Of a stretch of 64,000 nt of DNA, positions 4,592 through 28,217 are shown in pieces. The position numbers and the translations under genes were made by a program. The notes under the pieces were generated by a model. It was not told the DNA's origin. It saw only the letters and a program-made list of their open reading frames with translations, and did not search any database. Position 1 is the stretch's first letter; each line of letters opens with the position of its first letter. The stretch covers positions 15,488 through 79,487 of the forward strand of contig CAZSNP010000011.1 of the NCBI GenBank assembly GCA_964608265.1, read 5' to 3'. This DNA comes from an uncultured Anaerolineales bacterium. Its GTDB lineage: Bacteria; Chloroflexota; Anaerolineae; Anaerolineales; UBA6663.

Positions 4592-5809
4592 ATGCCATCG
4601 AACATGCGCGATTCGTTCCTGCTCGACCCCACAGTCACCTTCCTCAATCACGGTTCCTTCGGCGCGTGCCCGCGACCAGTCTTTGAGGAGTATCAGCGCT
4701 GGCAGCGTGAGTTGGAGCGGCAGCCGGTGGAGTTCATCGGGCGGCGGTTCAACGGGCTGATGCGCGCCGCCCGCGAGGCGCTGGCTGCATACGTGGGCAC
4801 CGCGGCTGACAATCTTGTGTACGTGCCCAACGCCACGGTTGCCCTCAACATCGTCGCGCGCAGCCTGAAGTTGCGGCCCGGCGACGAAATCCTCACCACC
4901 GACCACGAGTATGGGGCCATCGCGCGCACGTGGCGCTTCGTGTGCGCGCAGACCGGCGCGCGGCTGGTCACGCAATCCATCCCGCTGCCGCTCACCACGC
5001 CCGAAGCCTTTGGCGAGGCGCTGTGGGCGGGCGTCACGCCGCGCACCCGCGTCATCTGCCTCAGCCACATCACCTCGCCCACCGCCCTGATCTTCCCGGT
5101 CGAGGCGGTGTGCCGCCGCGCGCGCGAGGCCGGGTTGCTCTCGGTGGTGGATGGCGCACACGCCGCCGGGCAACTGCCGCTCGACCTACACTCGCTCGGC
5201 GCGGATGTGTACACCAGCAACTGTCACAAGTGGCTGTGCGCGCCCAAAGGCTCGGCCTTCCTCTACGCGCGGCCCGAAATCCAGCCGCTGATCGAGCCGC
5301 TCATCGTGAGCTGGGGCTACGAGGCCGAGGCGCCCGGCCCGTCGCGCTTCATTGACGAGCAGGAATACACCGGCACGCGCGACATCGCCGCCTACCTCGC
5401 TACCCCGGCGGCGATAGAATTCCTGCGCGCGAATGATTGGGGGCGCGTGCGGGCCGAGTGCCACGCGCTGGCCGTCGAGACGCAGCAGCGGCTTGCCGCG
5501 CTCACCGGCCTCGCGCCGCTCAGCGGGCCGGAGCATTTTGCGCAGATGGTCGCTGCGCCGCTTTGCGGCGAGGGAGAAACGCGCAACGTTTCTCCGGCGC
5601 GGGCGAAGCTTGCGCCCGCGCCGCTGCCCGAGTGTGATGTCGCGCAATTGAAGGCACGGCTTTACGACGAGCATCGCATCGAAGTTCCGGTGTTTCGCTG
5701 GCAGGGGCGCCCGGTGATTCGGGTGTCGGTTCAGGCCTACAACACGCGTGCGGATCTTGATCGGCTTATCGAAGCGCTCACCAGATTGTTACCGTCGGTG
5801 CAGAAGTGA
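4592..5809 (+). CDS. Aminotransferase class V-fold PLP enzyme (cysteine desulfurase / isopenicillin-N-epimerase-like)
   Basis: ORF 4541-5809. The start was moved to ATG 4592 because 4541 lies inside the upstream terminator. LNHGSFGACP N-terminus. SNCHKWLCAPKGSAFLY contains the PLP lysine context. Confidence 0.75.
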   Translation: MPSNMRDSFLLDPTVTFLNHGSFGACPRPVFEEYQRWQRELERQPVEFIGRRFNGLMRAAREALAAYVGTAADNLVYVPNATVALNIVARSLKLRPGDEILTTDHEYGAIARTWRFVCAQTGARLVTQSIPLPLTTPEAFGEALWAGVTPRTRVICLSHITSPTALIFPVEAVCRRAREAGLLSVVDGAHAAGQLPLDLHSLGADVYTSNCHKWLCAPKGSAFLYARPEIQPLIEPLIVSWGYEAEAPGPSRFIDEQEYTGTRDIAAYLATPAAIEFLRANDWGRVRAECHALAVETQQRLAALTGLAPLSGPEHFAQMVAAPLCGEGETRNVSPARAKLAPAPLPECDVAQLKARLYDEHRIEVPVFRWQGRPVIRVSVQAYNTRADLDRLIEALTRLLPSVQK

Positions 5810-6573
5810 TGCGGGTTGATCCGTCTCTCCCGGTGAAGTCTTACCCGTTCCCGCCCTGGCTGCGAGCGCTCACGCTTGTGGCGATCCCCATCATCGCCGT
5901 GGGTATGTTGGGGCTTGGGTTCTGGCAACTCTCGCGCCTGCTGGAACGGCGCACAGCGAACGCCCGCATCGAGGCGCGCCTGGCCCTCGCCCCGGTTGCG
6001 CTCGAACAGCTCGACCTCGGTGGTGATCTGTCGCTGCTTGAGTATCGCCCCGTCACCGTGCGCGGCACATTCGATTATGCTCATGAGATCGTTTGGCGTA
6101 ATCAGGCCTATCAGGGCGCGCCGGGGGTGCACGTCATCACGCCGCTGCGGCTTTCGGACCGAACCGCCGTCCTGGTGGATCGGGGTTGGATCCCGGCGCA
6201 GGCGGCAGATCGTGTGACACGGGCGGCCTATCAAAACCCAACCGGAGAGGCGGCGATCAGCGGCCTGGTGCGTTTGCCGGGGCAGCGCCGCTGGGATTTC
6301 GAGCCGCAGGACATTCCAGCGCCCGGTGAGGATCGGCTTGATGCATGGTTCTTCCTCAACGTGCCGCGCATCCAGACGCAAGTGCCCTACGCGTTATTGC
6401 CGTTGGTCGTTCAACAAGCCCCCGCAACCGACCCATCCACCCTGCCGATTCGGACTTATGATCTGCAGCTCGATGACGGGCCGCATGCGAGCTACGCCTT
6501 TCAATGGTTCGCTTTTGCTGCCATCGCCATCTTTGGGCCGTTGATCTATTGGTGGCGGACGCGCCGCCGTTAA
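5806..6573 (+). CDS. SURF1 family protein (cytochrome oxidase assembly)
   Basis: N-terminal TM followed by FWQLSRLLERRTANARIEARL. C-terminal HASYAFQWFAFAAIAIFGPLIYWW. Start overlaps the upstream stop. Confidence 0.78.
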   Translation: MMRVDPSLPVKSYPFPPWLRALTLVAIPIIAVGMLGLGFWQLSRLLERRTANARIEARLALAPVALEQLDLGGDLSLLEYRPVTVRGTFDYAHEIVWRNQAYQGAPGVHVITPLRLSDRTAVLVDRGWIPAQAADRVTRAAYQNPTGEAAISGLVRLPGQRRWDFEPQDIPAPGEDRLDAWFFLNVPRIQTQVPYALLPLVVQQAPATDPSTLPIRTYDLQLDDGPHASYAFQWFAFAAIAIFGPLIYWWRTRRR

Positions 6574-6631: not shown

Positions 6632-6778
6632 CTAGATGGCGACGATGATGTTGCTGAACACGTTACCGATCGTGGGGCCGAGGATGGCCAGCACGACGAT
6701 CACGACCACAGCCACGAGCACGAGGATGAGCGCGTACTCGACCAGGCCTTGTCCTTTGTTGTCCTTGAAAGTGAGCAT
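6632..6778 (-). CDS. flp: Flp/Fap family type IVb pilin (48 aa; below the ORF-track size cutoff)
   Basis: Manual translation: MLTFKDNKGQGLVEYALILVLVAVVVIVVLAILGPTIGNVFSNIIVAI. It has the G/LVEY prepilin-processing motif plus a hydrophobic helix. AAAGGA SD lies 8 nt upstream of ATG 6778. Confidence 0.75.
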   Translation of the reverse strand: MLTFKDNKGQGLVEYALILVLVAVVVIVVLAILGPTIGNVFSNIIVAI

Positions 6779-6853
6779 GTAGAATATCCTTTCTGGATAA
6801 ATGGTTGTCAGATTGTCGTTTCGGAACTGCTACAGCCTGACTAAGCTGCTGTG

Positions 6854-6882
6854 ATTATAGGAGGATTTACGCTAAGAAACAA
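6854..6882 (-). promoter_or_regulatory. Putative promoter of flp
   Basis: Minus strand: TTGTTT (6882..6877), 17-nt spacer, TATAAT (6859..6854), about 75 nt upstream of the flp ATG. Confidence 0.4.
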
Positions 6883-6937
6883 TGAAGTTTGCGTGAGTTT
6901 TGGTTGAAGATCGGTTGTCACACGCAGGAAAAAAGTA

Positions 6938-7345
6938 CTACAACGATTCGTACAGCTCCACCAGGACCCCATGCGCGCTTTCAGGATGGATGAAGGCATA
7001 GCGCCGTCCATCGCTGCGCTGGCGCGCAGTCTCATCGATCAGCCGGAAGCCCTGAGCTTTCAGATGGTCGAGCGTAGCCTGCACATCCTCCACCTCGACA
7101 CACACATGATGCATCCCCGGCCCGCGTTTGGCCAGATACTTCGCCATCCCCGAAGTCGTTGTGGTCGGTTGCACCAGTTCCACATGGCTTTCGCCCACCG
7201 GCAAAAAGGCCACCTGCGCCTCCTGCTCGGGCACAGGCTCGACCTCGGTCAAATCCAATCCCAGCCCGTCCCGCCAGAAGCGCAGGGCGCCGTCAATATC
7301 CTCCACCACCAGCGCAATGTGATTGATGCGAGTCACAGAAGCCAT
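6938..7345 (-). CDS. Methylmalonyl-CoA epimerase (VOC/glyoxalase fold)
   Basis: ORF 6938-7417, with the start moved to MASVTRINHIALVVEDIDGAL. Contains GMHHVCVEVEDV and HPESAHGVLVELYE. Confidence 0.85.
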   Translation of the reverse strand: MASVTRINHIALVVEDIDGALRFWRDGLGLDLTEVEPVPEQEAQVAFLPVGESHVELVQPTTTTSGMAKYLAKRGPGMHHVCVEVEDVQATLDHLKAQGFRLIDETARQRSDGRRYAFIHPESAHGVLVELYESL

Positions 7346-7417
7346 CGGTTTCCCTCGTATCCCGCCTTTCCTTCCTTTCCCGGCAGCCAGGGAAGCAAAG
7401 GAAAAGATGGAGATCAA

Positions 7418-9070
<1,653 letters not shown>

Positions 9071-16417: not shown

Positions 16418-16473
16418 GGGAAACGAGGGAGAAGGAATTGAAGGAGTAAAGGAAAGGGCGATGGGATAGCGAA

Positions 16474-16672
16474 CTGATGCCGGCAGCGGATGCAGGCAGC
16501 GTATGCCGGCAGCGGATGAGGAACGGATGCCGACAGCGGATGCCGGCAGTGGATGCCGGCAGCGGATGCAGGCAGCGGATGAGGAACGGATGTAACGGAT
16601 AGAGGCCACCGCCGCATCCATCCGCTACATCCGTTGCCAACCTCGGTTGCCAACATCCATTGCCAATTACCC
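16474..16672. repeat. Degenerate 13-bp tandem array (consensus CGGATGCCGGCAG) followed by inverted CATCC copies and a second TTGCCAAC array
   Basis: About 10 head-to-tail units at 16474-16595, with unit lengths of 13, 13, 13, 11, 13, 13, 13, 13, 11 and 9. There are 8 exact GGATG forward, then 4 CATCC at 16611-16657 and 3 TTGCCAA-type units at 16643-16672. Confidence 0.85.
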
Positions 16673-16673
16673 G

Positions 16674-17489
16674 ATGAACCTCACACTCCTCCCCTCCCCC
16701 TTCTCGCTTGATCAACATCGCAAAGGCATGGGCCGCGCGCCGGAGGCGTTGCTGGCCGCCGGGCTGGTCGCCGCGCTCGAAAGTGACGGCCACACAGTGC
16801 GCGTCGCCGAGCGCAGCACCGAACTCGGTGACGGCGACCGACTGGCGCGCCTCGGCCGCAACCTCGGCCTGCTGGCCGAGGCCAGCGCCGAGGCGCGGCG
16901 CGCGGGCACGCTGCCGGTCATCCTCGGCGGGGATTGTCTGGTTTCGATTGGGGCGGTGGCGGGGCTGCGACACTCGCTGGCCGAAGACTTCGGTATTGTG
17001 TGGTTCGACGCGCACGGGGATTTCAACACACCGGAGACGACGATCAGCGGTTACCTCGGCGGGATGCCGCTGGCATGCTGTTGTGGCCGTGGGCTGGAGG
17101 AACTCCGAGCCGCGGCCCACCTCGCGCAGCCGGTGAGCGACGCCAACGTCGCGCTGTTGGGTGTGCGCGATCTCGATCCCGCCGAACGCGCGCTGCTTGA
17201 CTCAACGCCCGTACGCCGCTTCGAGCCGGCGCACGTCGCGGACTTCGCGCCGCCGGTGCTTCCCACCTATTTGCATTTCGACATCGACGCGCTCGACGCC
17301 CGCTTCGCGCCCGGCGTGAACTATCCCGCGCCACACGGGCTGACGCCGCCGGCCGCCCTCGAGGCGGCGCGCAAAGTGCGGCCCCACCTCGCCGCCCTCT
17401 CGCTCACCGCCGTTGACCCGGAACTCGATCCAAACGGGCAGACTGTGCGGATGGGCGTGGAGCTTCTGAGGGGAATCCTGCGGGAATAG
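16674..17489 (+). CDS. Arginase/agmatinase-fold (ureohydrolase family) protein with an atypical active site
   Basis: ILGGDCLVSIG, VWFDAHGDFNTPE, GVRDLDPAE and HFDIDALD align by eye to arginase motifs. The start was moved to ATG 16674 to clear the repeat array. Confidence 0.72.
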   Translation: MNLTLLPSPFSLDQHRKGMGRAPEALLAAGLVAALESDGHTVRVAERSTELGDGDRLARLGRNLGLLAEASAEARRAGTLPVILGGDCLVSIGAVAGLRHSLAEDFGIVWFDAHGDFNTPETTISGYLGGMPLACCCGRGLEELRAAAHLAQPVSDANVALLGVRDLDPAERALLDSTPVRRFEPAHVADFAPPVLPTYLHFDIDALDARFAPGVNYPAPHGLTPPAALEAARKVRPHLAALSLTAVDPELDPNGQTVRMGVELLRGILRE

Positions 17490-17541: not shown

Positions 17542-18231
17542 TTATCGATTGGCGAAGCGGTAGCCCACGCCGCGCGAGGTGATGATGTAGTCGGGGTGCT
17601 CGGGGTCGCGCTCGATCTTCTTGCGCAAGTAGTGCACGTACAGCTTCAAACTCTCGGTGGCCTCGTTGTACTCCGGCCCCCAGGCATGCGCGATGAGTTC
17701 GCTGCGGGTGAGGACGCGGCCGGCGTTGCGCGCCAGGTGCGAGAGCAAAGAAAACTCCTTCGGCGTCAGCTCGACCGACTTACCGCGCACGAACACCTCA
17801 CGCGTCAAAAAGTTGATCTGCAGATCGCCGTTGCTGAACGCCAACTCATCGGTGGCTTTGCTATCCGACGTCTGCCGGCGCAGGTGCGACTTCACCCGCG
17901 CGACCAACTCGCGATTGTCGAAGGGCTTGACGATGTAATCATCGCCGCCGATCTCCAGCCCTTTCACCACATCCTTGATCCCCGACTTGGCGGTGATGAA
18001 CATGATCGGGACCTCGGTGAATTCGCGCATGCGGCGACACACTTCCCACCCATCCATCTCGGGCATCATCACATCCAGCAGCACCATATCTGGCGTTTGC
18101 TCTTGCGCCATCCGTAGCCCTTCGGAGGCCAGGGCGGTTGTGATGGTCTGAAAACCGTTATGCTGCAACAGGGTACTGACGAGCCAGCAGGTGTTCTCGT
18201 CGTCATCAATCACCAGAATCTTGTTCGCCAT
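17542..18231 (-). CDS. OmpR-family response regulator
   Basis: Receiver domain (KILVIDDDE, LLDVMMPEMDG, FITAK) plus winged helix (LTPKEFSLLSHLARNAGRVLTR...VGYRF). No histidine kinase is adjacent. Confidence 0.9.
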   Translation of the reverse strand: MANKILVIDDDENTCWLVSTLLQHNGFQTITTALASEGLRMAQEQTPDMVLLDVMMPEMDGWEVCRRMREFTEVPIMFITAKSGIKDVVKGLEIGGDDYIVKPFDNRELVARVKSHLRRQTSDSKATDELAFSNGDLQINFLTREVFVRGKSVELTPKEFSLLSHLARNAGRVLTRSELIAHAWGPEYNEATESLKLYVHYLRKKIERDPEHPDYIITSRGVGYRFANR

Positions 18232-18369
18232 GATTTATCCCGATTGGAGAAGCGTTAGAAAAAGTCTAACACGGCCTCCGAACAAAGGCAACTCCAACAA
18301 ACCGAAATTACTGGGAGTTTGGTCATGGTTTTCAACCAAACGTGAGTTTCTCCAGCCGAACACTCGTGC

Positions 18370-18375
18370 TACAAT
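18370..18375 (+). promoter_or_regulatory. Putative extended -10 (TGcTACAAT) in front of nurA
   Basis: TACAAT at 18370-18375 is preceded by TGC. ATG 18383 lies 7 nt downstream with no SD. The -35 is weak (TTTCTC). Confidence 0.3.
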
Positions 18376-19576
18376 GCCGCACATGGCGCTCGAACTCAAC
18401 AAGCTGATGGCCGATGTCAATGCGCTCAGTGGCAGCGCTGTGCAGCGATTGGCCGAGCAGGCCGAACGGCTGCCGGTGGCACGTGCCATCCTCAACGACA
18501 TCGCCGCCGCCGATGACGCCCTGCGCCGCAAGATCCGTGCGGCCGGCAACCGCTGGGCCGGCGCCATCCCCACCGACCAGGACGTCCATCGCCCGTATCC
18601 GCTGCCGCCGCATCCCGCGCGCGCCAACGTCCTTGCCGCCGATGGCTCGCAGATTTATCCCGACCGGCACGGCGTGGCGCTGTACTACCTCGTAAACGTC
18701 GGCAGCCTGATCTTTCGACATGGTTCGGGCGAGGCCCCGATCACGCAATCGCAGCCGCAGGTGTTTTTTGAAGATGCTGATTTGTATGATGAGGACGGCG
18801 GGCAGATCTCGGCGCAGCAGATCGATGTGCTGCGCGATGTGGGCGAACTCCGCGAGTTGGCGCGGCTCGCCCAACTCGAAGCGGCCTCCGCGCCCACGCT
18901 GGCGCTGCTCGACAATGGCTTGCTGTTGTACATCTCGCTGCAGGCCCAGAACCGCTCCGAGATCGAGGCCGCCCTGCGCCCGTACCTGCACGAACTCGAT
19001 GGATTGAAGGCCAGCGGCGCGGCGGTGGCCGGGGTGGTGGATCGCCCGCGCGCCTCGGGGGTGCTGCGGTTGTTGCACCTGCACACGCTCCACCTCGACG
19101 AGGTCGAGCAGCACGCCGAACGCTACAAATCGAGCCCAGCCTTCCGCCACCTCACTGATGCCATGCTCTTCAGCTTTTTGCAGCCCGGTGAACGCAGCGC
19201 GGTGTTCGAGAACGCCACGCCCGCCAACCGCGATCACTATCAGCCGCGCGGGCATTCGGTGCACTTCTTCTATCTCAACGCGGGCCGCCCCGGCAAAGAC
19301 GCGCTGCTCCGCATCGAGGTGCCCGAGTGGGTGGCTCACAATCCCGACCAGCTTGATTTTGTGCACGCCGCCATCGTCGAGCAGTGCCGTGTGAGCGATG
19401 GCTTTCCATATGTGTTGATGCGCGCGCACGAGCTAGCCGTCGTCACCGTGGCCGAGCGCCGCGAACTTGAGCAACTCGTCGTCGGCGCCCTTGTCCGGCG
19501 CGGCCTGCAGCCGAGCCTGTCGCAGAAGGCGCAGGGCAAGGTGTGGACGGGGGCGGGCGGGCAGAGAAATCCGTGA
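18374..19576 (+). CDS. nurA: NurA-domain nuclease (start at ATG 18374 or 18383)
   Basis: ANVLAADGSQIYPD (DGS motif), LALLDNGLLLYISLQ, and C-terminal DGFPYVLMRAHELAVVTVAERRE. These match NurA family signatures by eye. The N-terminal part of ORF 18191-19576 was rejected because it overlaps the divergent regulator. Confidence 0.7.
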   Translation: MPHMALELNKLMADVNALSGSAVQRLAEQAERLPVARAILNDIAAADDALRRKIRAAGNRWAGAIPTDQDVHRPYPLPPHPARANVLAADGSQIYPDRHGVALYYLVNVGSLIFRHGSGEAPITQSQPQVFFEDADLYDEDGGQISAQQIDVLRDVGELRELARLAQLEAASAPTLALLDNGLLLYISLQAQNRSEIEAALRPYLHELDGLKASGAAVAGVVDRPRASGVLRLLHLHTLHLDEVEQHAERYKSSPAFRHLTDAMLFSFLQPGERSAVFENATPANRDHYQPRGHSVHFFYLNAGRPGKDALLRIEVPEWVAHNPDQLDFVHAAIVEQCRVSDGFPYVLMRAHELAVVTVAERRELEQLVVGALVRRGLQPSLSQKAQGKVWTGAGGQRNP

Positions 19577-19602
19577 AGGGCAGCCCAGCACAGGGAGAGA
19601 CA

Positions 19603-20184
19603 ATGACCATTGGCCGCCTCCTCCGCAGTTCCACCACCGGCTTTGTCTTCGGCTGTCGCGTGGCTGAGGCCGATGTGCCGCGCTTCGGCGAGTTTGTCAA
19701 AGCGCCGGCGCAGCGCGGCCAGGCCGAGGTCATCGGCCTCGTCTACGACATCATCATGGAGGGCGATGCCTTTGTGCGCCAGATGGTGGCCGCGCCCGAC
19801 CTGACCGAGGAGTACGTGCAGGATATGCGCCTGAACCGCAGTGTGCCGATTGAGGTCAGCGTGCTGGCCATCGGTTACCGCAGCCACGATCAATGGGTGC
19901 AGTCGCTGCCGCCGCAGCCGCCGGTCACGCTCGACCGCATCAGCCTGGCCTCGATTGACGAAGTGGTGGAGTTCACCGCGCGCTTCGACTATCTGCGCCT
20001 GCTGCTCGACGCCTTCGACGCGCCGACCGACGAGCTCATCGCCACCTCGCTGCGCCAGGCTGCCGGGCTGCGCGCCCCGGCTGAGCGCAATCGCTTCCTG
20101 CGCGACGCGGGCCGCGAACTCGCCCGCCTGCTCAGCCGCGACCTGGCGCGTTTGGAAAACCTGCTGCGCCGGATCAAGCCGTGA
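19603..20184 (+). CDS. Stand-alone HAS-barrel-like protein with a helical C-terminal domain (function unknown)
   Basis: 193 aa from ATG 19603, with GGGAGAG upstream. The N-terminus MTIGRLLRSSTTGFVFGCRVAEADVPRFGEFVKAP..AEVIGLVYDII has the same pattern as the HerA N-terminal barrel encoded downstream. The C-terminal half is Arg/Leu-rich and helical. Confidence 0.5.
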   Translation: MTIGRLLRSSTTGFVFGCRVAEADVPRFGEFVKAPAQRGQAEVIGLVYDIIMEGDAFVRQMVAAPDLTEEYVQDMRLNRSVPIEVSVLAIGYRSHDQWVQSLPPQPPVTLDRISLASIDEVVEFTARFDYLRLLLDAFDAPTDELIATSLRQAAGLRAPAERNRFLRDAGRELARLLSRDLARLENLLRRIKP

Positions 20185-20299
20185 AGCTATGGGGACAGTT
20201 AGCGCAAGGACGCAATGAACGGCCTCCCTTTGCGCCGTTGCCTCTTCGCGCCTTTGCGTTATATCTGCTTTGAAAATGACAGCGCCGAAGGATTGACCA

Positions 20300-21994
20300 A
20301 TGACATCCCGCTCTGAAGACCGTGATTTCCTCCTCAACAACCGCAGCCCGCTGTTGCGCAACCGCCTGGGCCTCGTCATCGGCGGGTCGCTCTCGCAGGG
20401 ATTGGATGTCAAACTCGAAGTCGAAGACCTCAGCCGCGGGGTCCCGCTCGGCAGCCGCCTCGAGGGCATCGCCGTCGGCAAATATGTCGTCATCGATGGC
20501 AGCACGCGCCAGTTCTTCTCCATCGTCACCGACATCGCCCTCGACCACACCACGCCCGACCTGCTCAAATCGCCGCCGCCCGCCGACGATGATTTCGCCA
20601 AACAAGTCTACGGCGCCGAGCTGGCGTTTGGCCGGCTGCAGGTCGCGCCGATGCTGGTCTTCGATCAGGGCGACGACAAACCCAGGCCGGTCAAAACCAT
20701 CCCGACCCACTTCGCGCCGGTGTACGAGGCGACCGAGGACGACGTCAACCGCGTCTTTGGGCAGGAAGATGACGAACACTTCCACATCGGCACGCCGCTG
20801 GATATGGAGCGCGTCAAGGTCAACCTCGACCTCAAACGCTTCGTCGAGCGGTCGTCGGGCGTGTTCGGCAAGTCGGGCACCGGCAAGAGCTTCATCACCC
20901 GCACCATCCTCGGCGGCATCGTCAGGGCCGATGTGGCCTCGTGTTTGATCTTCGACATGCACAACGACTACGGCTGGAGCGTGCGCGACGAGCATGGGCG
21001 CGAGTTCAAGGGCCTGCGGCAGCTCTTCGATACGAGCAGGGTACAGGTGATCACGCTCGACCCGGAGACCTCGCGCCATCGCGGCAGCAGGACCGACGGC
21101 ACGCTGCAAATCGGCTGGGATCAGATCGAGCCGGAGGATGTGGAGATGTTGCAGGACATCCTCGGCCTGAGCGATGTGCAGGTCGGCTCGCTTTACTATC
21201 TGCACCGCAAGCTGCGCAAAGGCTGGATCGCCGAGCTGCTGCGCGAGGACGACAACAACGCCATCACCGAGATCGAAGAGTCGGAGAAGATTCAGAAGGG
21301 CACGCTGCGCGCTATCCAGCGCAAGTTTGAGTTCTTCCGCCGCTTCGGCTTTATGCGCGAGACCACGCCGCCCGACGACCTGGTCGAGTACATCTTCAAC
21401 GCCCTCAACCGCGGCATCAGCATCGTGCTGGAGTTTGGCGTGTACGGCAACACGCTGGCGGCATATGTGCTGGTGGCCAATTACCTCACGCGCCGCATCC
21501 ACGCGAAGTATGTGGACAAGAAGAACAAGGCTGCCGGGCGACAGGGCGAGGAGCCGAAGCCGCTGATCATCACCATCGAAGAGGCGCACAAGTTCCTCGA
21601 TCCCGAGATCGCCCAGCACACCATCTTCGGCAACATCGCCCGCGAGCTGCGCAAATACAACGTCACGCTGCTCATCGTCGATCAGCGCCCGAGCGGCATT
21701 GACGAGGAAGTGATGAGCCAGATCGGGACGCGCGTCACCTGTCTGCTCGACAACGAGGCCGACATCCGCGCGGTGTTCTCCGGCGTGAGCGGGGCGAACC
21801 AGTTGCGCGAGGTGCTCAGCCGTCTCGACACCCAGCAGCAGGCCCTCATCCTCGGCCACGCCGTGCCCATGCCCGTGGTCGTCAAGACGCGCGAGTACGG
21901 GCCGGAGCTTTACAAGGCGCTGGGCTTGGCCGACGAGGCGGCGGCGAAAGCGAAACGCAAGAAGGACAGCGCGGCGTTGTGGGGGGAAGAGTAG
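20300..21994 (+). CDS. herA: HerA/FtsK-like hexameric ATPase (DUF87 family)
   Basis: N-terminal barrel (LGLVIGGSLSQGLDVKLEV...GKYVVIDG). Walker A GVFGKSGTGKSF. IITIEEAHKFLDP. VTLLIVDQRPSGIDEEVMSQIGTRVTCLLDNEADIRAV. Confidence 0.85.
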   Translation: MTSRSEDRDFLLNNRSPLLRNRLGLVIGGSLSQGLDVKLEVEDLSRGVPLGSRLEGIAVGKYVVIDGSTRQFFSIVTDIALDHTTPDLLKSPPPADDDFAKQVYGAELAFGRLQVAPMLVFDQGDDKPRPVKTIPTHFAPVYEATEDDVNRVFGQEDDEHFHIGTPLDMERVKVNLDLKRFVERSSGVFGKSGTGKSFITRTILGGIVRADVASCLIFDMHNDYGWSVRDEHGREFKGLRQLFDTSRVQVITLDPETSRHRGSRTDGTLQIGWDQIEPEDVEMLQDILGLSDVQVGSLYYLHRKLRKGWIAELLREDDNNAITEIEESEKIQKGTLRAIQRKFEFFRRFGFMRETTPPDDLVEYIFNALNRGISIVLEFGVYGNTLAAYVLVANYLTRRIHAKYVDKKNKAAGRQGEEPKPLIITIEEAHKFLDPEIAQHTIFGNIARELRKYNVTLLIVDQRPSGIDEEVMSQIGTRVTCLLDNEADIRAVFSGVSGANQLREVLSRLDTQQQALILGHAVPMPVVVKTREYGPELYKALGLADEAAAKAKRKKDSAALWGEE

Positions 21995-22032
21995 TTGTGC
22001 TAGACTCAATGTGGTCAGGCTGGAGGTATGTC

Positions 22033-22293
22033 ATGCGAACTCTACAACTACAAACTCATGTCGGCTCCGATGGTCTCCTCAAGCTTGAGGTCCCCATTGG
22101 CCTGCGCAATATCGAACTAGAAGTGATTGTGATAGTACAGCCCCGCAAATCGGAGAATGGGGCTCAATACCGAACGCTGGAAGAGCTTGGCTGGCCGCCT
22201 GGTTTCTTTGAGCGAACCGCCGGCGCCTGGGCCGGCGAACCCATGGTGCGTGAGTCCCAGGGCACGTATGAAATCCGTGACGAGTTGGAATGA
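22033..22293 (+). CDS. vapB: VapB-type antitoxin (putative)
   Basis: 86 aa from ATG 22033, with GGAGG 6 nt upstream. The stop overlaps the PIN gene start (ATGA). Lower GC than the flanks. Confidence 0.55.
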   Translation: MRTLQLQTHVGSDGLLKLEVPIGLRNIELEVIVIVQPRKSENGAQYRTLEELGWPPGFFERTAGAWAGEPMVRESQGTYEIRDELE

Positions 22294-22693
22294 CATACCT
22301 GCTCGACACAAACACTTGCATCGACTTTCTCAATCGGCGCAACTCTCGGATCGAGGCGCGGCTAACGACCGTTGCGGTGAGCGAGGTGAGTCTGTGTTCT
22401 GTCGTGAAGGCAGAACTTTACCTTGGCGCATATCGTAGTTCGCAGCGTGAGAAGAATCTCGCATTGCTGGCAGACTTCTTTCCCCGTTTGTGAGCTATTC
22501 ATTTGACGACATTGCGAGCGAGGTGTATGGTCGTGTGCGCGCCGCGTTGATGAGTCAGGGACAGATCATTGGTCCAAATGACTTATTGATTGCGGCGATT
22601 GCGATTGCCAATGGTCTTACCCTCGTCACCCATAACGTACGCGAGTTCGGTCGGGTTTCTGGCCTTCAATTAGAAGATTGGGAAGCAGCATAG
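22290..22693 (+). pseudogene. vapC: PIN-domain VapC toxin split by a frameshift at about 22488-22493
   Basis: The first 67 aa (MTYLLDTNTCIDFLN...) end at TGA 22491-22493. The C-terminal half (SYSFDDIASEVYG...DLLIAAIAIANGLTLVTHNVREF) continues in another frame from 22490. Together they make about 134 aa, a normal PIN length. A sequencing error cannot be excluded. Confidence 0.72.
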
Positions 22694-23284: not shown

Positions 23285-24514
23285 ATGACGCCGCTCACCC
23301 TCACGCCCCAACTCGCCCGCCGCCTCTTCATCCACAAGCAACGCCTGGCCGGGCCGGCGCCCGAGCCGAACGCAGCCGGCCTGCTCGACGTGGCGCGGGC
23401 GCTTCGCTGTTTGCAACTCGACCCGATCAGCGCGGTGGCGCGCAGCCATCAACTGGTGTTGTTCAGCCGCCTCGGGCCGTATGGCCTCGACCAGCTCGAT
23501 CAATTGCTCTGGCGTGATCGCGCGCTGTTCGAGTACTGGGCCCACTGCGCCTCGCTCGTGCTGACCGAAGACTTCGCCCTGCATCAGGCGCGGATGCGGG
23601 CCTACCCCTCGGGCGAGGGCGTGTGGAGCACACGGGCGCGCAAGTGGATCGGCGACAACGCCAGGCTCAAACGCTACATCCTCGGCCAGATCCGGAGACG
23701 CGGGCCGCTGCTCTCGCGCGACCTGGAAGAGGCCGGCCTCCAGCCCAAGGCCTGGGTCTCCACCGGTTGGACGTCGGGCCGCAACATCAGCCGGATGCTG
23801 GATTTTCTGTGGCTGTCGGGGCAGATCATGGTGACGGCGCGCCAGGGCGGGCAGAAGGTGTGGGATTTGGCGGAGCGCGTGCTGCCCGAGTGGACGCCGC
23901 GCGAGAAGCTGCGCGAACCCGAGGTGACGCGGCGCGCCATCGAGCACTCGCTGCGCGCGCTGGGCGTAGGCGCCGAGCGGCACATCAAGTATCACTTCGT
24001 GCGCGGGCGCTATCCTCACTTCAACGAGGCGATGGCTGAGCTGACACGCGAGAAGAGGATTCGAGGCGTGGAGATCAAGGGCTGGCCCGGGCAGTGGTAT
24101 CTCCACGCTGACGACGAGCCGCTGCTCGACGAATCACGCCTGGCGCCTCACGCGCCCCGCACCGCCCTCCTCTCCCCTTTCGACAACCTCATCGCCGACC
24201 GCGCCCGCACCAAGTTGATGTTCGACTTCGATTTCCGCATCGAGATCTACGTGCCGCCGGCGAAACGCAAGTACGGCTATTACGTGCTGCCCATCCTGCA
24301 CGGCGATCAACTCATCGGACGGATCGACCCGCAGCTGGATCGGGAGGCCGGTTGCCTGCGGGTGAACGCCGTGTACGCGGAACCCGGCGCGCCGCGCGAG
24401 GCCGGGCCGAACGTGGCCCGCGCGGTGCAATCGCTGGCGCAGTTTCTCTCCGCCCGCGAAATCCGCTACAATCGCCGGCGCGTTCCCGTGTTCTGGAAAA
24501 AAGCGCTTCAGTAG
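23285..24514 (+). CDS. YcaQ/AlkZ-family winged-helix DNA glycosylase (DUF1006; interstrand-crosslink repair)
   Basis: 410 aa from ATG 23285. LRCLQLDPISAVARSHQLVLFSR carries the Q-phi-D motif. Also LFEYWAHCASLV and YYVLPILHGDQLIGRIDP. Confidence 0.72.
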   Translation: MTPLTLTPQLARRLFIHKQRLAGPAPEPNAAGLLDVARALRCLQLDPISAVARSHQLVLFSRLGPYGLDQLDQLLWRDRALFEYWAHCASLVLTEDFALHQARMRAYPSGEGVWSTRARKWIGDNARLKRYILGQIRRRGPLLSRDLEEAGLQPKAWVSTGWTSGRNISRMLDFLWLSGQIMVTARQGGQKVWDLAERVLPEWTPREKLREPEVTRRAIEHSLRALGVGAERHIKYHFVRGRYPHFNEAMAELTREKRIRGVEIKGWPGQWYLHADDEPLLDESRLAPHAPRTALLSPFDNLIADRARTKLMFDFDFRIEIYVPPAKRKYGYYVLPILHGDQLIGRIDPQLDREAGCLRVNAVYAEPGAPREAGPNVARAVQSLAQFLSAREIRYNRRRVPVFWKKALQ

Positions 24515-24560: not shown

Positions 24561-25820
24561 ATGCCCGACCCCATCCGCGCCCTGCACTTCGCCGACCTCC
24601 ATGTGGGCATGGAGAACTACGGCAAGATCGATCCGGCCACCGGCATCTCCAGCCGCATCCGTGATTTCCTCGACCGCCTCGATGAGGTCATCGGCTACGC
24701 GGAAGCGCACGACGCCGACCTGGTGCTGTTCGCGGGCGATGCGTTCAAAACGCGCGACCCCGACCCGACGCAGCAACGCGAGTTCGCGCGCCGCATCAAA
24801 CGGCTGGCCGAGCGCGCGCCGGTGCTGCTGCTCGTCGGCAACCACGATGTGCCCGGCATCGCCGCGCGCGCCACCTCGATTGACATCTTCACCACGCTCG
24901 ACGTGCCCAACGTCATCGTCGGGCGCAAGCCCGGCACGCAAGTGGTGCAGACGAGGCGCGGGCCGGTCTTCCTGGCGTGGATGCCCTTCCCGGTGCGCAG
25001 CCGGATGCTGGCCAATGAAACCTACGGCTCGATCGAAGAGCTCGATCGCGCCGTGGAGAAGGCCGTGCACGGCACGCTGGCCGACTTTGCGCGGGAGGCG
25101 GCGGAGCACGACATGCCGCGCGTGCTCGCGGGCCACTTCTCGGTGGGCGGCGCGGTCTTCGGCAGCGAACGGAGCGTGATGGTGGGCCGCGACCTCCTCA
25201 TCCAAAAATCCGCCCTCGCCGACCCGGCCTGGGATTACGTGGCGCTGGGGCACATCCACAAGCATCAAGACTTGACTGCCTCGGAACGAGGGCGCGGGGG
25301 TGAGGGCGAGCTGCGGGTCCCTCCCATCGTCTACTCCGGTTCGCTCGAACGCATTGACTTCGGCGAGGAGGTGGAGCCGAAGGGATTCTGCTGGCTCAAC
25401 CTGCAACGCGGCGCGACGACGTGGGAGTTCGTGCGCGTGGCGGCGCGGCCCTTTCACACCTTGCGCCTCGACGCGCGCGGCGAAGCCGACCCGACCGCGC
25501 TGGTCTGTGACCGGGTCGCGGCCCGCGAGCTGACCGGCGCGGTTGTGCGCGTGACGATTGAGCTGGACGAGGGCCAGGAGCCGCTGCTGCGCAAGCGCGA
25601 GGTCGAGGCCGCCCTGACCGAAGCGGGTGTGGCCACCATCGCCGGCATCACGCTCGAGGTCGAGCGAACCGTGCGGGTGCAGGGCATCGGGGCGAACGCC
25701 GAGGCGCTGACACCGCAACAATGGCTGCACCGTTACTTTGATGCGAAGAGCAAACCGCCGGAGCGGATCGAGAAATTGATGCAGGCCGCTCAAGGATTGC
25801 TGGACGGGGACACAGCATGA
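24561..25820 (+). CDS. sbcD: SbcD/Mre11 family nuclease
   Basis: Calcineurin-like phosphoesterase motifs: ALHFADLHVG, LFAGDAFK, LLVGNHD, VLAGHF and LGHIHKHQ. Confidence 0.87.
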   Translation: MPDPIRALHFADLHVGMENYGKIDPATGISSRIRDFLDRLDEVIGYAEAHDADLVLFAGDAFKTRDPDPTQQREFARRIKRLAERAPVLLLVGNHDVPGIAARATSIDIFTTLDVPNVIVGRKPGTQVVQTRRGPVFLAWMPFPVRSRMLANETYGSIEELDRAVEKAVHGTLADFAREAAEHDMPRVLAGHFSVGGAVFGSERSVMVGRDLLIQKSALADPAWDYVALGHIHKHQDLTASERGRGGEGELRVPPIVYSGSLERIDFGEEVEPKGFCWLNLQRGATTWEFVRVAARPFHTLRLDARGEADPTALVCDRVAARELTGAVVRVTIELDEGQEPLLRKREVEAALTEAGVATIAGITLEVERTVRVQGIGANAEALTPQQWLHRYFDAKSKPPERIEKLMQAAQGLLDGDTA

Positions 25821-25955: not shown

Positions 25956-28217
25956 ATGATTCCTCTGCGCCTGGAACTCACCAATTTCCTCGCGTACCGC
26001 AATCCCGCGCCGCTGGATTTCACCGGGCTGCACGTGGCCGTGCTCACCGGCGAGAACGGCGCAGGCAAATCGTCGCTGCTCGATGCGCTGACGTGGGTGC
26101 TATGGGGCAAGGCCCGCGCGCGGCGCGATGATGAGCTGGTGCATCAGGGCCAGAGCGAGATGAGCGTGACCTTCACCTTCGCGCTCGGCGCGGATGTGTA
26201 CCGGGTGCGACGCGCCAAGCGCGCCGGCAAAGCGACCGGCGGCGTGCTCGATCTGCAGGCGCAGGTCGAGGGCAAATGGACCTCGCTCACCGAGGCCACC
26301 ATCCCCAGGACGCAGGACAAGATCACGCGCCTGCTGCGGCTGAACTACGATACCTTCGTCAACTCGGCCTACCTCCTGCAGGGTCACGCGGATGAGTTCA
26401 CCGGCAAGAAGCCGGCCGAGCGCAAACAGGTGCTGGCCGACATCCTCGGCCTGCAGGCGTGGGACGACTACGCCGACCGCGCGAAGGAGAAAATCAAAGC
26501 CTTCGACCAGCAACTGGCCGAGTTGGAGGGCCGACTGGTCGAGATCGAAAACGAGTTGGCCCGGCGTGACGACTACGAGCGCGAGCTGGGCGAGGCCAGG
26601 ACGCGCGTGATCGAAGTGGCCGAGCGCCTGCGGACGGCGGAGGGGGAGTGGGCGGGGATCGAGGCGGCGCGGCAGGCGCTGCTGACGCTGACCCGGCAGG
26701 CGGAGGACCTGGCGCGGCGGGTGCGAGGGGCGGAGGCTGAACTGGCGACGCTGGAGGCCGACCTGCGCGAGGCCCAGGCGCGCGCGGACGCGGCGACACT
26801 GGCGCATGACCTGCGCACGACCGAGCGCCGGCTGGCGCAACTGGAGGAGGTCGAAGGCGAGCGCGAGCGAACGGCCGAGGCGCGGCGCGTGACGGGCGAG
26901 CTGGCGGCGCAACTGCGCGGGCAAAACGACTCGGCCCAGGCCGAAGGCGAGGCGCTGAAGAAACGCATCGAGAGCGTGAGCGCGGAGGCCAACCAGGCCA
27001 AGAAGCGCCTGCACGAGTCGCTGCGCGGCGAGGTCGGCAGACTCGAACAGCGCGTCGCCAACCTGCGCAGCGCCACCGAGGCGGTGTGCCCGACGTGCGG
27101 GCAGCCGCTCACCGAGCCGCAACGCGCCGACCTCATCGAGCAACTGCTGGCCGAGGCCGAGGCGCGCACCACCCAATCCAAAGCCGAAGAGCACGCGCTC
27201 GAATCCCGCCTCAGCCAGACTCTGGCCGAACTCAACGCCGAGGTCGAGGCGCGGCGCGACCTCTATCGCCAAAACCAGCTGCAATTGAAAACGCTGGGCG
27301 ATGAGCAGGCGCGGATGGAACGCGACCTGCAGGCCTTCGCGCTGGAGTTACGCGACCAGCCGGCGCTGGCCGGGCGGCTGGGCGAGTTGCGGGCCGCGCT
27401 CGACCAGGCCGGCGCCGCGCAGGAAAAGATCGCCGAGCTGTTGAAGCGGCGCGACCGCTGGGCCAAAGCGCGCGATGAGGATGCGCGGACACAGACGCAG
27501 GTGGAGGCCGAGGCCGCGCAGCACCGCGCGGTGTTGCAGACCGCCGATGCAAAGCAACGCACGCTCGACGCGCTGCGACAAGAGGATACGCTGGCCAAAG
27601 CGCGGCTGGGCGCGGCGGAACAGAAGCTACGGGCCCTCGACACGCTGGCCCGGCAACGCGAAGCGCGCCGCGCCGAACGGCTGACGCTGGCCGAGGCCAG
27701 GGGACTGCACGAGGAGTTGCGCGAAGCGTTCGGCAAGCGCGGTGTGCCGGCCATGATCATCGAGACCGCCGTGCCCGAGATCGAGGCGGAGGCCAACCGT
27801 TTGTTGGGCCGCATCACCGACGGGCGCATGGCGTTGCGTTTCAAATTGCAGAAGGAGACCCAGGCCGGCGACGTGCGTGAGACGCTCGACATCGAGATCG
27901 CCGATGAGTTGGGCACACGGGCGTATGAAATGTACTCGGGAGGGGAGGCATTTCGGGTCAACTTCGCCATCCGCATCGCGCTCAGCCAGTTGCTGGCGCG
28001 GCGGGCCGGCACGCAATTGCACACGCTCATCATTGACGAGGGCTTCGGCGTGCTCGATGCGGCGGGCCGCGAACGGCTGGTGGAGGCCATCAACGCCGTG
28101 CAGGATGACTTCGACCGCATCCTGGTGGTCACGCACATCGCCGAACTCAAGGATGCTTTCCCCGCGCGCATCGAGGTGACCAAAGGGCCGAATGGGTCGG
28201 AGATCACGGTGCAGTAA
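25956..28217 (+). CDS. sbcC: SbcC/Rad50 family ATPase
   Basis: P-loop LTGENGAGKSSLLDAL. Long A/E/R/L-rich coiled coil. Zinc hook CPTCGQPL. Signature YSGGEAFRVNFAIRIAL. Walker B LIIDEGFGVLD. Confidence 0.87.
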   Translation: MIPLRLELTNFLAYRNPAPLDFTGLHVAVLTGENGAGKSSLLDALTWVLWGKARARRDDELVHQGQSEMSVTFTFALGADVYRVRRAKRAGKATGGVLDLQAQVEGKWTSLTEATIPRTQDKITRLLRLNYDTFVNSAYLLQGHADEFTGKKPAERKQVLADILGLQAWDDYADRAKEKIKAFDQQLAELEGRLVEIENELARRDDYERELGEARTRVIEVAERLRTAEGEWAGIEAARQALLTLTRQAEDLARRVRGAEAELATLEADLREAQARADAATLAHDLRTTERRLAQLEEVEGERERTAEARRVTGELAAQLRGQNDSAQAEGEALKKRIESVSAEANQAKKRLHESLRGEVGRLEQRVANLRSATEAVCPTCGQPLTEPQRADLIEQLLAEAEARTTQSKAEEHALESRLSQTLAELNAEVEARRDLYRQNQLQLKTLGDEQARMERDLQAFALELRDQPALAGRLGELRAALDQAGAAQEKIAELLKRRDRWAKARDEDARTQTQVEAEAAQHRAVLQTADAKQRTLDALRQEDTLAKARLGAAEQKLRALDTLARQREARRAERLTLAEARGLHEELREAFGKRGVPAMIIETAVPEIEAEANRLLGRITDGRMALRFKLQKETQAGDVRETLDIEIADELGTRAYEMYSGGEAFRVNFAIRIALSQLLARRAGTQLHTLIIDEGFGVLDAAGRERLVEAINAVQDDFDRILVVTHIAELKDAFPARIEVTKGPNGSEITVQ

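Follow-up and report, generated by a model that had tools for sequence, protein, structure and literature searches.

A conserved free-standing HAS-barrel protein encoded between nurA and herA in Chloroflexota: a candidate accessory component of the HerA-NurA machine

A 193-aa protein (here designated X), encoded between nurA and herA in the 64,000-nucleotide stretch of Anaerolineales DNA analysed in this study (the window), is a genuine and strongly conserved small protein, which, judging from its predicted fold and from the Pfam scores of its relatives, belongs to the HAS-barrel fold class. X is proposed to assist the HerA-NurA machine in DNA-end resection as an accessory component (with a rough probability of 0.55), a partnership suggested by synteny. 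The helicase-nuclease HerA-NurA serves as a model for the resection of DNA ends, and several anti-phage systems are driven by HerA rings. The HAS barrel was reportedly defined by Iyer et al. in 2004.

The gene encoding X occupies positions 19603–20184 of the + strand, inclusive of its stop codon (20182–20184), and starts at an ATG (19603) that is preceded, at a distance of 3 nt, by a Shine-Dalgarno-like GGGAGAG (19593–19599, + strand; read from the sequence). The TGA stop codon of nurA is located at 19574–19576, leaving 26 nt between the two genes; the placement of X in a preliminary description of this DNA, i.e. between nurA and herA with a start 27 nt past the nurA stop, was confirmed from the window coordinates, and the N-terminal sequence of X and the HerA motifs quoted there match the window translations exactly. 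The GC content at the three codon positions of X (0.72, 0.44 and 0.87, respectively) agrees with that of the neighbouring genes, and the GC3 value of 0.87 is similar to that of the adjoining genes.

A word-indexed search identified 568 clusters of X homologues at 90% identity, approximately 195–205 aa in length and mostly from Chloroflexi/Anaerolineae, which carry no precomputed Pfam domain and bear 'hypothetical' as their sole label. When clustered at 50% identity, the matches of an exhaustive profile search comprise 688 representatives, of which 387 reach E ≤ 1e-10; the members of this unnamed family are all approximately 200 aa long. Alignment of 33 X sequences (A1) revealed a mean column identity of 66% with the invariant blocks VPxFGxFV, LPPQPPxTLD and DYLRL...P.DEL; the LPPQPP motif (residues 102–107; 19906–19923, + strand), invariant in A1, shows the strongest conservation in the whole family. 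In a second alignment of 12 sequences reaching down to 30% identity (A2), residues P26, G29, G91, P103, P106 and D143 are invariant, and L102 of the LPPQPP motif is nearly so. X evolves at an intermediate rate, the mean distances being 0.68 for the HerA barrel, 0.81 for X and 0.93 for NurA. Among the models of NCBIfam, PADLOC and PHROGs none matched the window X, and a tblastn search of plasmids with the X homologue P0336 returned no match. Two records (P0240 and P0245) were considered as NurA-X fusions and rejected as such, their sequence being scrambled between the two parts and the first X strands being missing; judging from these sequences, they are read as probable frame errors in metagenome ORF calls.

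The sub-threshold Pfam match of the window X, together with the hypothetical label that the protein carries in every source, might be taken to indicate that X is non-functional, representing either a chance ORF or the decaying leftover of a duplicated herA 5' end. Against this, full-length homologues with invariant motifs exist in the hundreds, both domains of X yield confident models, its codon-position GC content fits that of its neighbours and its start codon is preceded by the Shine-Dalgarno-like site described above. The conservation data rule this reading out, leaving it a negligible probability.

The AF2 model of X, which was generated with alignment A1 (pLDDT 79.6, pTM 0.77), contains strands at residues 2–10, 15–20, 31–35, 42–52, 83–94, 97–99 and 112–115, and residues 1–117 (19603–19953, + strand) are predicted to constitute a HAS-type beta-barrel based on these strands, Foldseek, the Pfam scores of relatives and hhalign. 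Foldseek comparison of the model with the PDB produced 61 matches at E ≤ 0.001 (best E 5e-6), and all 50 of those listed are ATPases of the HerA family, the alignments covering the N-terminal part of these proteins in 122–190 columns (mostly approximately 125–145); these listed matches include TdpA, SIR2-HerA, DUF4297-HerA and the HerA-NurA proteins of T. kodakarensis and D. radiodurans. In the predicted structure, the beta-barrel of X superposes on the N-terminal domain of HerA. The window X matches the Pfam HAS-barrel model PF09378 with 15.2 bits (E 0.024) over residues 19–52 only, thus not reaching the gathering score of 25.2. Among relatives whose homology with X extends along the entire protein, P0336 (33.5 bits), P0353 (32.1 bits) and P0377 (29.7 bits) exceed this cut-off, and P0374 (25.0 bits) and P0258 (24.7 bits) are positioned just under it. 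Profile-profile alignment of the X family with the cognate HerA family by hhalign, although weak (E 0.03–0.055), placed X residues 12–141 on HerA residues 29–156 in a register that spans the whole barrel, with a better score than that of the NurA, Mre11 and Rad50 controls. By sequence profile, X is an old, distant relative of the barrel of the neighbouring HerA; a recent duplication of the 5' end of the adjoining herA was rejected as its origin on account of this low profile-profile similarity.

Beyond residue 117, X is all-helical (76 aa) and it does not possess a P-loop: the sequence contains two lysines and no GK[ST], with no match to DUF87 or any other P-loop profile, so that Walker A, Walker B and DUF87, which mark the HerA/FtsK-type ASCE ATPases, are lacking from X. 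The preliminary description of X as a stand-alone, HAS-barrel-like protein devoid of an ATPase domain is thereby borne out, the monomer modelling and Foldseek search that it proposed having returned a predicted HAS barrel and, among the 50 matches listed, exclusively HerA-family proteins. The C-terminal region, residues 118–193 (19954–20181, + strand), is modelled as a compact, Arg- and Leu-rich domain of five helices that span residues 118 to 191, and reaches a pLDDT of 92 when modelled alone. This domain matched neither PDB folds (best E 2) nor PDB sequences, nor did it match the HerA, NurA, Mre11 and Rad50 profiles. An Arg/Leu-rich helical domain had been anticipated for this region, which holds true with respect to its helical nature and composition, but not for its predicted length of approximately 100 aa (found to be approximately 76 aa, residues 118–193). 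Furthermore, a conserved insertion within the barrel (residues 53–81; 19759–19845, + strand) is modelled as helices at low confidence, with pLDDT values below 50 at residues 53–64 and 78–81, while D55, V58, D74, R76, N78 and R79 within this insertion are invariant in A1. Such conservation in combination with low model confidence fits a segment that becomes ordered on binding, and the insertion may represent a putative partner-binding segment.

A genome scan retrieved 46 loci with X, nearly all of which are labelled Anaerolineales/Anaerolineae, Thermoflexales or Chloroflexi/Chloroflexota, the closest being that of an Anaerolineales MAG (L003) with an X that is 89% identical to that of the window. 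Synteny was counted across 58 loci with X (L001–L057 and the window) by means of HMMs built from the loci. Of the 47 loci in which 1.5 kb or more was available, 43 have herA 3' of X in the same orientation; nurA is found 5' of X in 41 of the 50 for which 1 kb or more was available, a count that includes L034, where nurA is present and had been missed by the automatic filter. The string is often nurA-X-herA followed by mre11-rad50, with alkZ between herA and mre11 in some cases. At approximately 33–34% identity to the window X, the five genes nurA-X-herA-mre11-rad50 are found in L051 (a MAG labelled Clostridia) and in L055, and nurA-X-herA in L057 and L052. Start/stop codon overlaps are present in L052, L055, L057 and L060, and in L055 and L052 it is the nurA stop that overlaps the X start. 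The order is also kept in L058, another relative at this level of identity, with an extra 209-aa ORF (5203–5832) between nurA and X that has no Pfam match and is not an X paralogue.

Incomplete arrangements were likewise encountered: three lineages that have X-herA but lack nurA (L039/L040, L047/L048 and L060; in L047/L048 a divergent oxidoreductase gene lies upstream of X-herA), nurA-X without an adjoining herA (L038 and L059) and orphan copies of X (L037, L049 and L050), the X-herA pairs lacking nurA being slightly commoner than the nurA-X pairs lacking herA. Distance-matrix (mirror-tree) correlations of X with all partners are high (r 0.83–0.90) with no single partner standing out; the highest value is that for NurA (r 0.90), for which the partial correlation, controlling for the ATPase part of HerA, is 0.60. 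Operonic linkage to nurA and herA is thus found across distant relatives and is absent from the cyanobacterial branch discussed below; the expected linkage of X homologues to nurA/herA in other genomes held down to approximately 33% identity, but not in that branch or in a few Chloroflexota orphans.

The X-herA spacer (20185–20299, 115 nt) is empty in the window, where it harbours neither a terminator-like site nor an unusual RNA fold (z 0.11), and in many of the related loci small genes have been inserted there. The insert is a small PDDEXK_3 (PF13366) gene in L004, L005, L007, L008, L010 (at 6637–7032), L011, L015, L016, L023 and L024, a nucleotidyltransferase/HepT pair is present instead in L034 (6603–7495), and apparently similar inserts are seen in L019, L033 and L045. 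The spacer therefore has the appearance of an insertion hot spot within the operon, one that small selfish genes enter repeatedly, and, since it is often filled in this way, tight translational coupling of X to herA is not obligatory.

The nurA gene of the window (18374–19576, + strand; Pfam NurA E 6.5e-24) encodes 400 aa from the ATG at 18374, which is the best start as homologues align from there (residue 4 onward), the mechanically derived ORF starting at a GTG (18191). The herA gene (20300–21994, + strand; 564 aa) matches DUF87 (E 7.5e-31) and, weakly, the HAS-barrel model (E 0.0039). Alignment with HerA homologues (A4) locates its own N-terminal barrel at approximately residues 22–150 (20363–20749), and homologues in L057, L058 and L060 are annotated with PF09378, in agreement with the earlier statement that HerA has a barrel of its own. 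Further downstream on the + strand are an AlkZ-like DNA glycosylase gene (approximately 23300–24514, the start being approximate; PF06224 E 8.7e-59), found at the same place in at least seven related loci (L001, L005, L009, L012, L016, L023 and L024), an mre11/sbcD-type nuclease gene (24561–25820; an ORF whose L001 homologue has a Metallophos domain), which is also co-located in L051 and L055, and a rad50/sbcC-type ATPase gene (25956–28217; L001 homologue with SMC_N, Rad50_zn_hook and SbcC_Walker_B). The position of the AlkZ-like gene between herA and mre11-rad50 suggests a larger string of DNA-repair genes.

Right after herA, the region 21979–22693 contains two ORFs in different frames (22290–22493 and 22490–22693) that between them match a PIN domain, one its N-terminal and the other its C-terminal half; either a vapC-like toxin gene has undergone a frameshift here or the sequence contains an error. 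The small ORF preceding them has no Pfam match and could be a candidate antitoxin; this module is not present at the corresponding slot in L001. On the other side of the operon, an OmpR-type response regulator gene (17542–18231, − strand; identified from the Pfam matches of its L001 counterpart) is divergent from nurA, as is also the case in L001/L002. As a consequence of this divergent transcription, the nurA-X-herA promoter region (18232–18373) is shared with the OmpR-type gene, which hints at possible regulation. Additionally, a tandem array of approximately 8–10 copies of a 13-nt repeat (consensus GATGCCGGCAGCG) is located at 16471–16592 and a short, related array nearby at 16627–16666, both around the intergenic region between a thiolase gene and the next + strand ORF (16647–17489); these arrays give rise to long, spurious repetitive ORFs on both strands.

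The X family extends to cyanobacteria. P0336, a 221-aa X homologue, adjoins ndhS on a 1.8-Mb contig, and ndhS (NDH-1 subunit S) is a gene specific to oxygenic phototrophs. Members of the P0336 type are homologous to the Chloroflexota X over the full length (hmmsearch E of approximately 1e-50 with the Chloroflexota profile) and share with it the P..FG, LPPxPP and C-terminal motifs, although P0336 scores above the Pfam HAS-barrel threshold and the window X below it. A metagenome scan with P0336 produced 377 matching stretches, and loci of the cyanobacterial type were catalogued as L053, L054 and L061–L140 (in L053, ndhS is at 6675–6869 and the X homologue at 7001–7666). Among the 80 cyanobacterial-type loci examined (flanks up to 10 kb in length; 38 of the loci span at least 15 kb), X proteins are 65–100% identical (median 76%), and neither herA nor nurA was found within 10 kb of X in any of the 80. 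The ndhS gene is directly upstream of X on the same strand in 70 of these 80 loci, and within 4 kb in 57 of the 59 with at least 1.5 kb of upstream sequence; no other conserved neighbour was found in the 80 loci, all genes but ndhS being variable. We know of no function for the cyanobacterial HerA homologue. This conserved protein, Sll0284, is encoded elsewhere in the genome than X (PMC8136920), and the cyanobacterial X could on this account act in trans.

How X might contribute to a HerA machine may be considered in the light of solved complexes, in every one of which, to our knowledge, the partner enzyme docks at the barrel layer of HerA. In D. radiodurans, NurA is bound through the HAS barrel (PMC9960219), the C-terminal domain of DUF4297 binds the HAS domain of its HerA (PMC11291478), and two HerA barrels clamp helix alpha-1 of SIR2, the HerA barrel also being inserted into the adjacent subunit, in the groove that separates its barrel from its RecA-like domain (PMC11472057). 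In these complexes, the barrel accordingly performs two jobs: (i) packing on the barrel and RecA groove of its neighbour, thereby holding the ring together, and (ii) forming, as a ring of barrels, a docking platform for NurA, SIR2 or DUF4297. Given these two jobs, a free X barrel would therefore most plausibly bind the HerA barrel layer or the HerA-binding face of NurA. In the proposed mechanism, X would share a transcript with nurA and herA, both in Chloroflexota and in certain other bacteria, often in the string nurA-X-herA-(alkZ)-mre11-rad50, and its binding may control the assembly or closure of the HerA ring, or else the coupling of nuclease and motor, with the C-terminal helical domain and the 53–81 insertion possibly providing additional contacts. 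Any physical contact of X with HerA/NurA, or effect on their activity, is inferred, and X qualifies as a candidate 'third subunit' of the HerA-NurA complex by virtue of its gene neighbourhood. Both barrels are acidic, with a net charge of −3 for that of X (family median −4) and −10 for that of HerA. Several observations weigh against X being a partner of the machine, namely the position of the cyanobacterial branch away from herA/nurA in 80 loci and the three orphans, the occurrence of nurA-X without an adjoining herA (L038 and L059), and distance correlations that are high for all partners alike. Moreover, the D. radiodurans complex is described as having two components in a 6:2 ratio, with a third protein unmentioned (PMC9960219).

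The same cyanobacterial loci are among the arguments for a function of X that is independent of HerA and NurA, for instance as a ring of its own on DNA or with another partner, its place in the operon then reflecting co-regulation or an inherited Chloroflexota gene order. X is unlinked to herA/nurA in all 80 of these loci and paired with ndhS in 70 of them, orphan copies exist in L037, L049 and L050, most of the linked loci derive from a single class (Anaerolineae), and the X-herA spacer tolerates the insertion of selfish small genes, so that tight coupling to herA is not required. However, linkage is kept down to approximately 33% identity, also in the MAG labelled Clostridia, and amid differing surrounding contexts, the sole recognisable domain of X is the one that defines HerA, and cyanobacteria do keep the HerA homologue Sll0284 (PMC8136920), such that action in trans is possible; an independent function is considered unlikely. 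A still more doubtful proposal, a special case of the partnership with the machine in which X targets NurA, would see X as a decoy or safety factor whose free barrel imitates the docking surface of HerA and keeps the NurA dimer in an inactive state, or off the DNA, until displaced by the HerA ring. It is consistent with the docking of NurA on HAS barrels (PMC9960219), with X distances correlating best with those of NurA even given the ATPase part of HerA, with the overlap of nurA stop and X start in L055 and L052, with the nurA-X pairs of L038 and L059, and with the acidic nature of the X barrel, which resembles that of HerA, the D. radiodurans interface pairing a negative HerA with a positive NurA (PMC9960219). 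Yet X-herA without nurA (L039/L040, L047/L048 and L060) is at least as common, the higher correlation with NurA may reflect similar evolutionary rates alone, and NurA reads a surface composed of four adjacent barrels (PMC9960219), which a single barrel may not reproduce.

A role for nurA-X-herA as an anti-phage defence system similar to SIR2-HerA, DUF4297-HerA and TdpAB, with X as sensor or adaptor, is regarded as highly unlikely. While the closest fold matches of X include the defence HerAs TdpA, SIR2-HerA and DUF4297-HerA, and small mobile genes, including toxin-antitoxin genes, are clustered at the locus, neither X nor NurA has a PADLOC match and X has no PHROG match. The HerA of the window does match PADLOC HerA models (E 1.8e-36, the best stretch covering residues 417–532 only) and, far under the cut-off, the NCBIfam model 'HerA_antiphage', but its scores with the NCBIfam models of the repair type are just as poor. 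Furthermore, the module is found in many genomes at a stable chromosomal position beside mre11-rad50 and the AlkZ-like glycosylase gene, and X, NurA and HerA show strong correlations between their distances from locus to locus, which joint vertical descent would be expected to produce. The cognate effector gene that characterises HerA anti-phage systems was not found beside herA, and within the module HerA alone matched defence profiles, namely the generic HerA models; the neighbours are nurA, the AlkZ-like gene, mre11 and rad50.

Returning to X as an accessory component of the HerA-NurA machine, we tentatively put forward the possible extension that X represents a widespread, uncharacterised family of free HAS barrels that act in trans as partners of bacterial HerA of the K06915/Sll0284 type, where X might form a stacked or mixed ring, or cap an open spiral, and thereby gate ring closure and NurA coupling. 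A conserved free barrel encoded between the genes for nuclease and motor would point to an unstudied way of regulating or assembling HerA machines, and X offers the HerA-motor field a lead and a concrete protein for testing. Cyanobacteria are genetically tractable, and the reach of the X family into these organisms provides a practical route to a phenotype.

With respect to known proteins, the model of X has the same fold as the HAS barrel (PF09378) of HerA ATPases from D. radiodurans (7wrx, 7f6d) and T. kodakarensis (9x1l) and of TdpA (8wfd), the matches listed for HerA-family barrels having Foldseek E-values of 5e-6 to 4e-4 at a probability of 1.0. The X and HerA barrels present their motifs in the same order, including the insertion between strands 4 and 5 and the proline-rich loop before the last strand. 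Unlike HerA, X is a separate polypeptide without the RecA-like core, the Walker motifs and the helix-bundle insertion, and it adds a C-terminal five-helix domain that has no solved counterpart. The locus resembles NurA-HerA of D. radiodurans (PMC9960219) in that nurA and herA form one operon in the window and HerA consists of a barrel and a DUF87 ATPase, with mre11/rad50-type genes near in many X loci. In phmmer searches, the HerA of the window did not recover D. radiodurans HerA and its NurA found no solved NurA; both proteins are distant from their solved counterparts. The HerA-family defence complexes SIR2-HerA/Nezha, DUF4297-HerA and TdpAB use the barrel layer of the HerA hexamer to dock the product of a neighbouring gene (PMC11472057, PMC11291478), the partners in those complexes being SIR2, DUF4297 and TdpB as opposed to NurA and X in the window, where the context is one of DNA repair. 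As had been surmised, a nurA-X-herA module was not described in the literature searched (Iyer et al. 2004 lying outside it), nor was a third gene or a stand-alone HAS-barrel protein reported there for the NurA-HerA system. The complex of D. radiodurans is HerA6:NurA2 with no third protein (PMC9960219), whereas the window carries a conserved third gene between the two. On the evidence of fold and synteny so far, a known two-gene machine, NurA-HerA, is accompanied by a conserved, unstudied third gene; should the tentative extension given above be correct, end resection in Chloroflexota, and possibly the HerA of cyanobacteria, would involve a three-component machine with an architecture that none of the solved HerA complexes displays.
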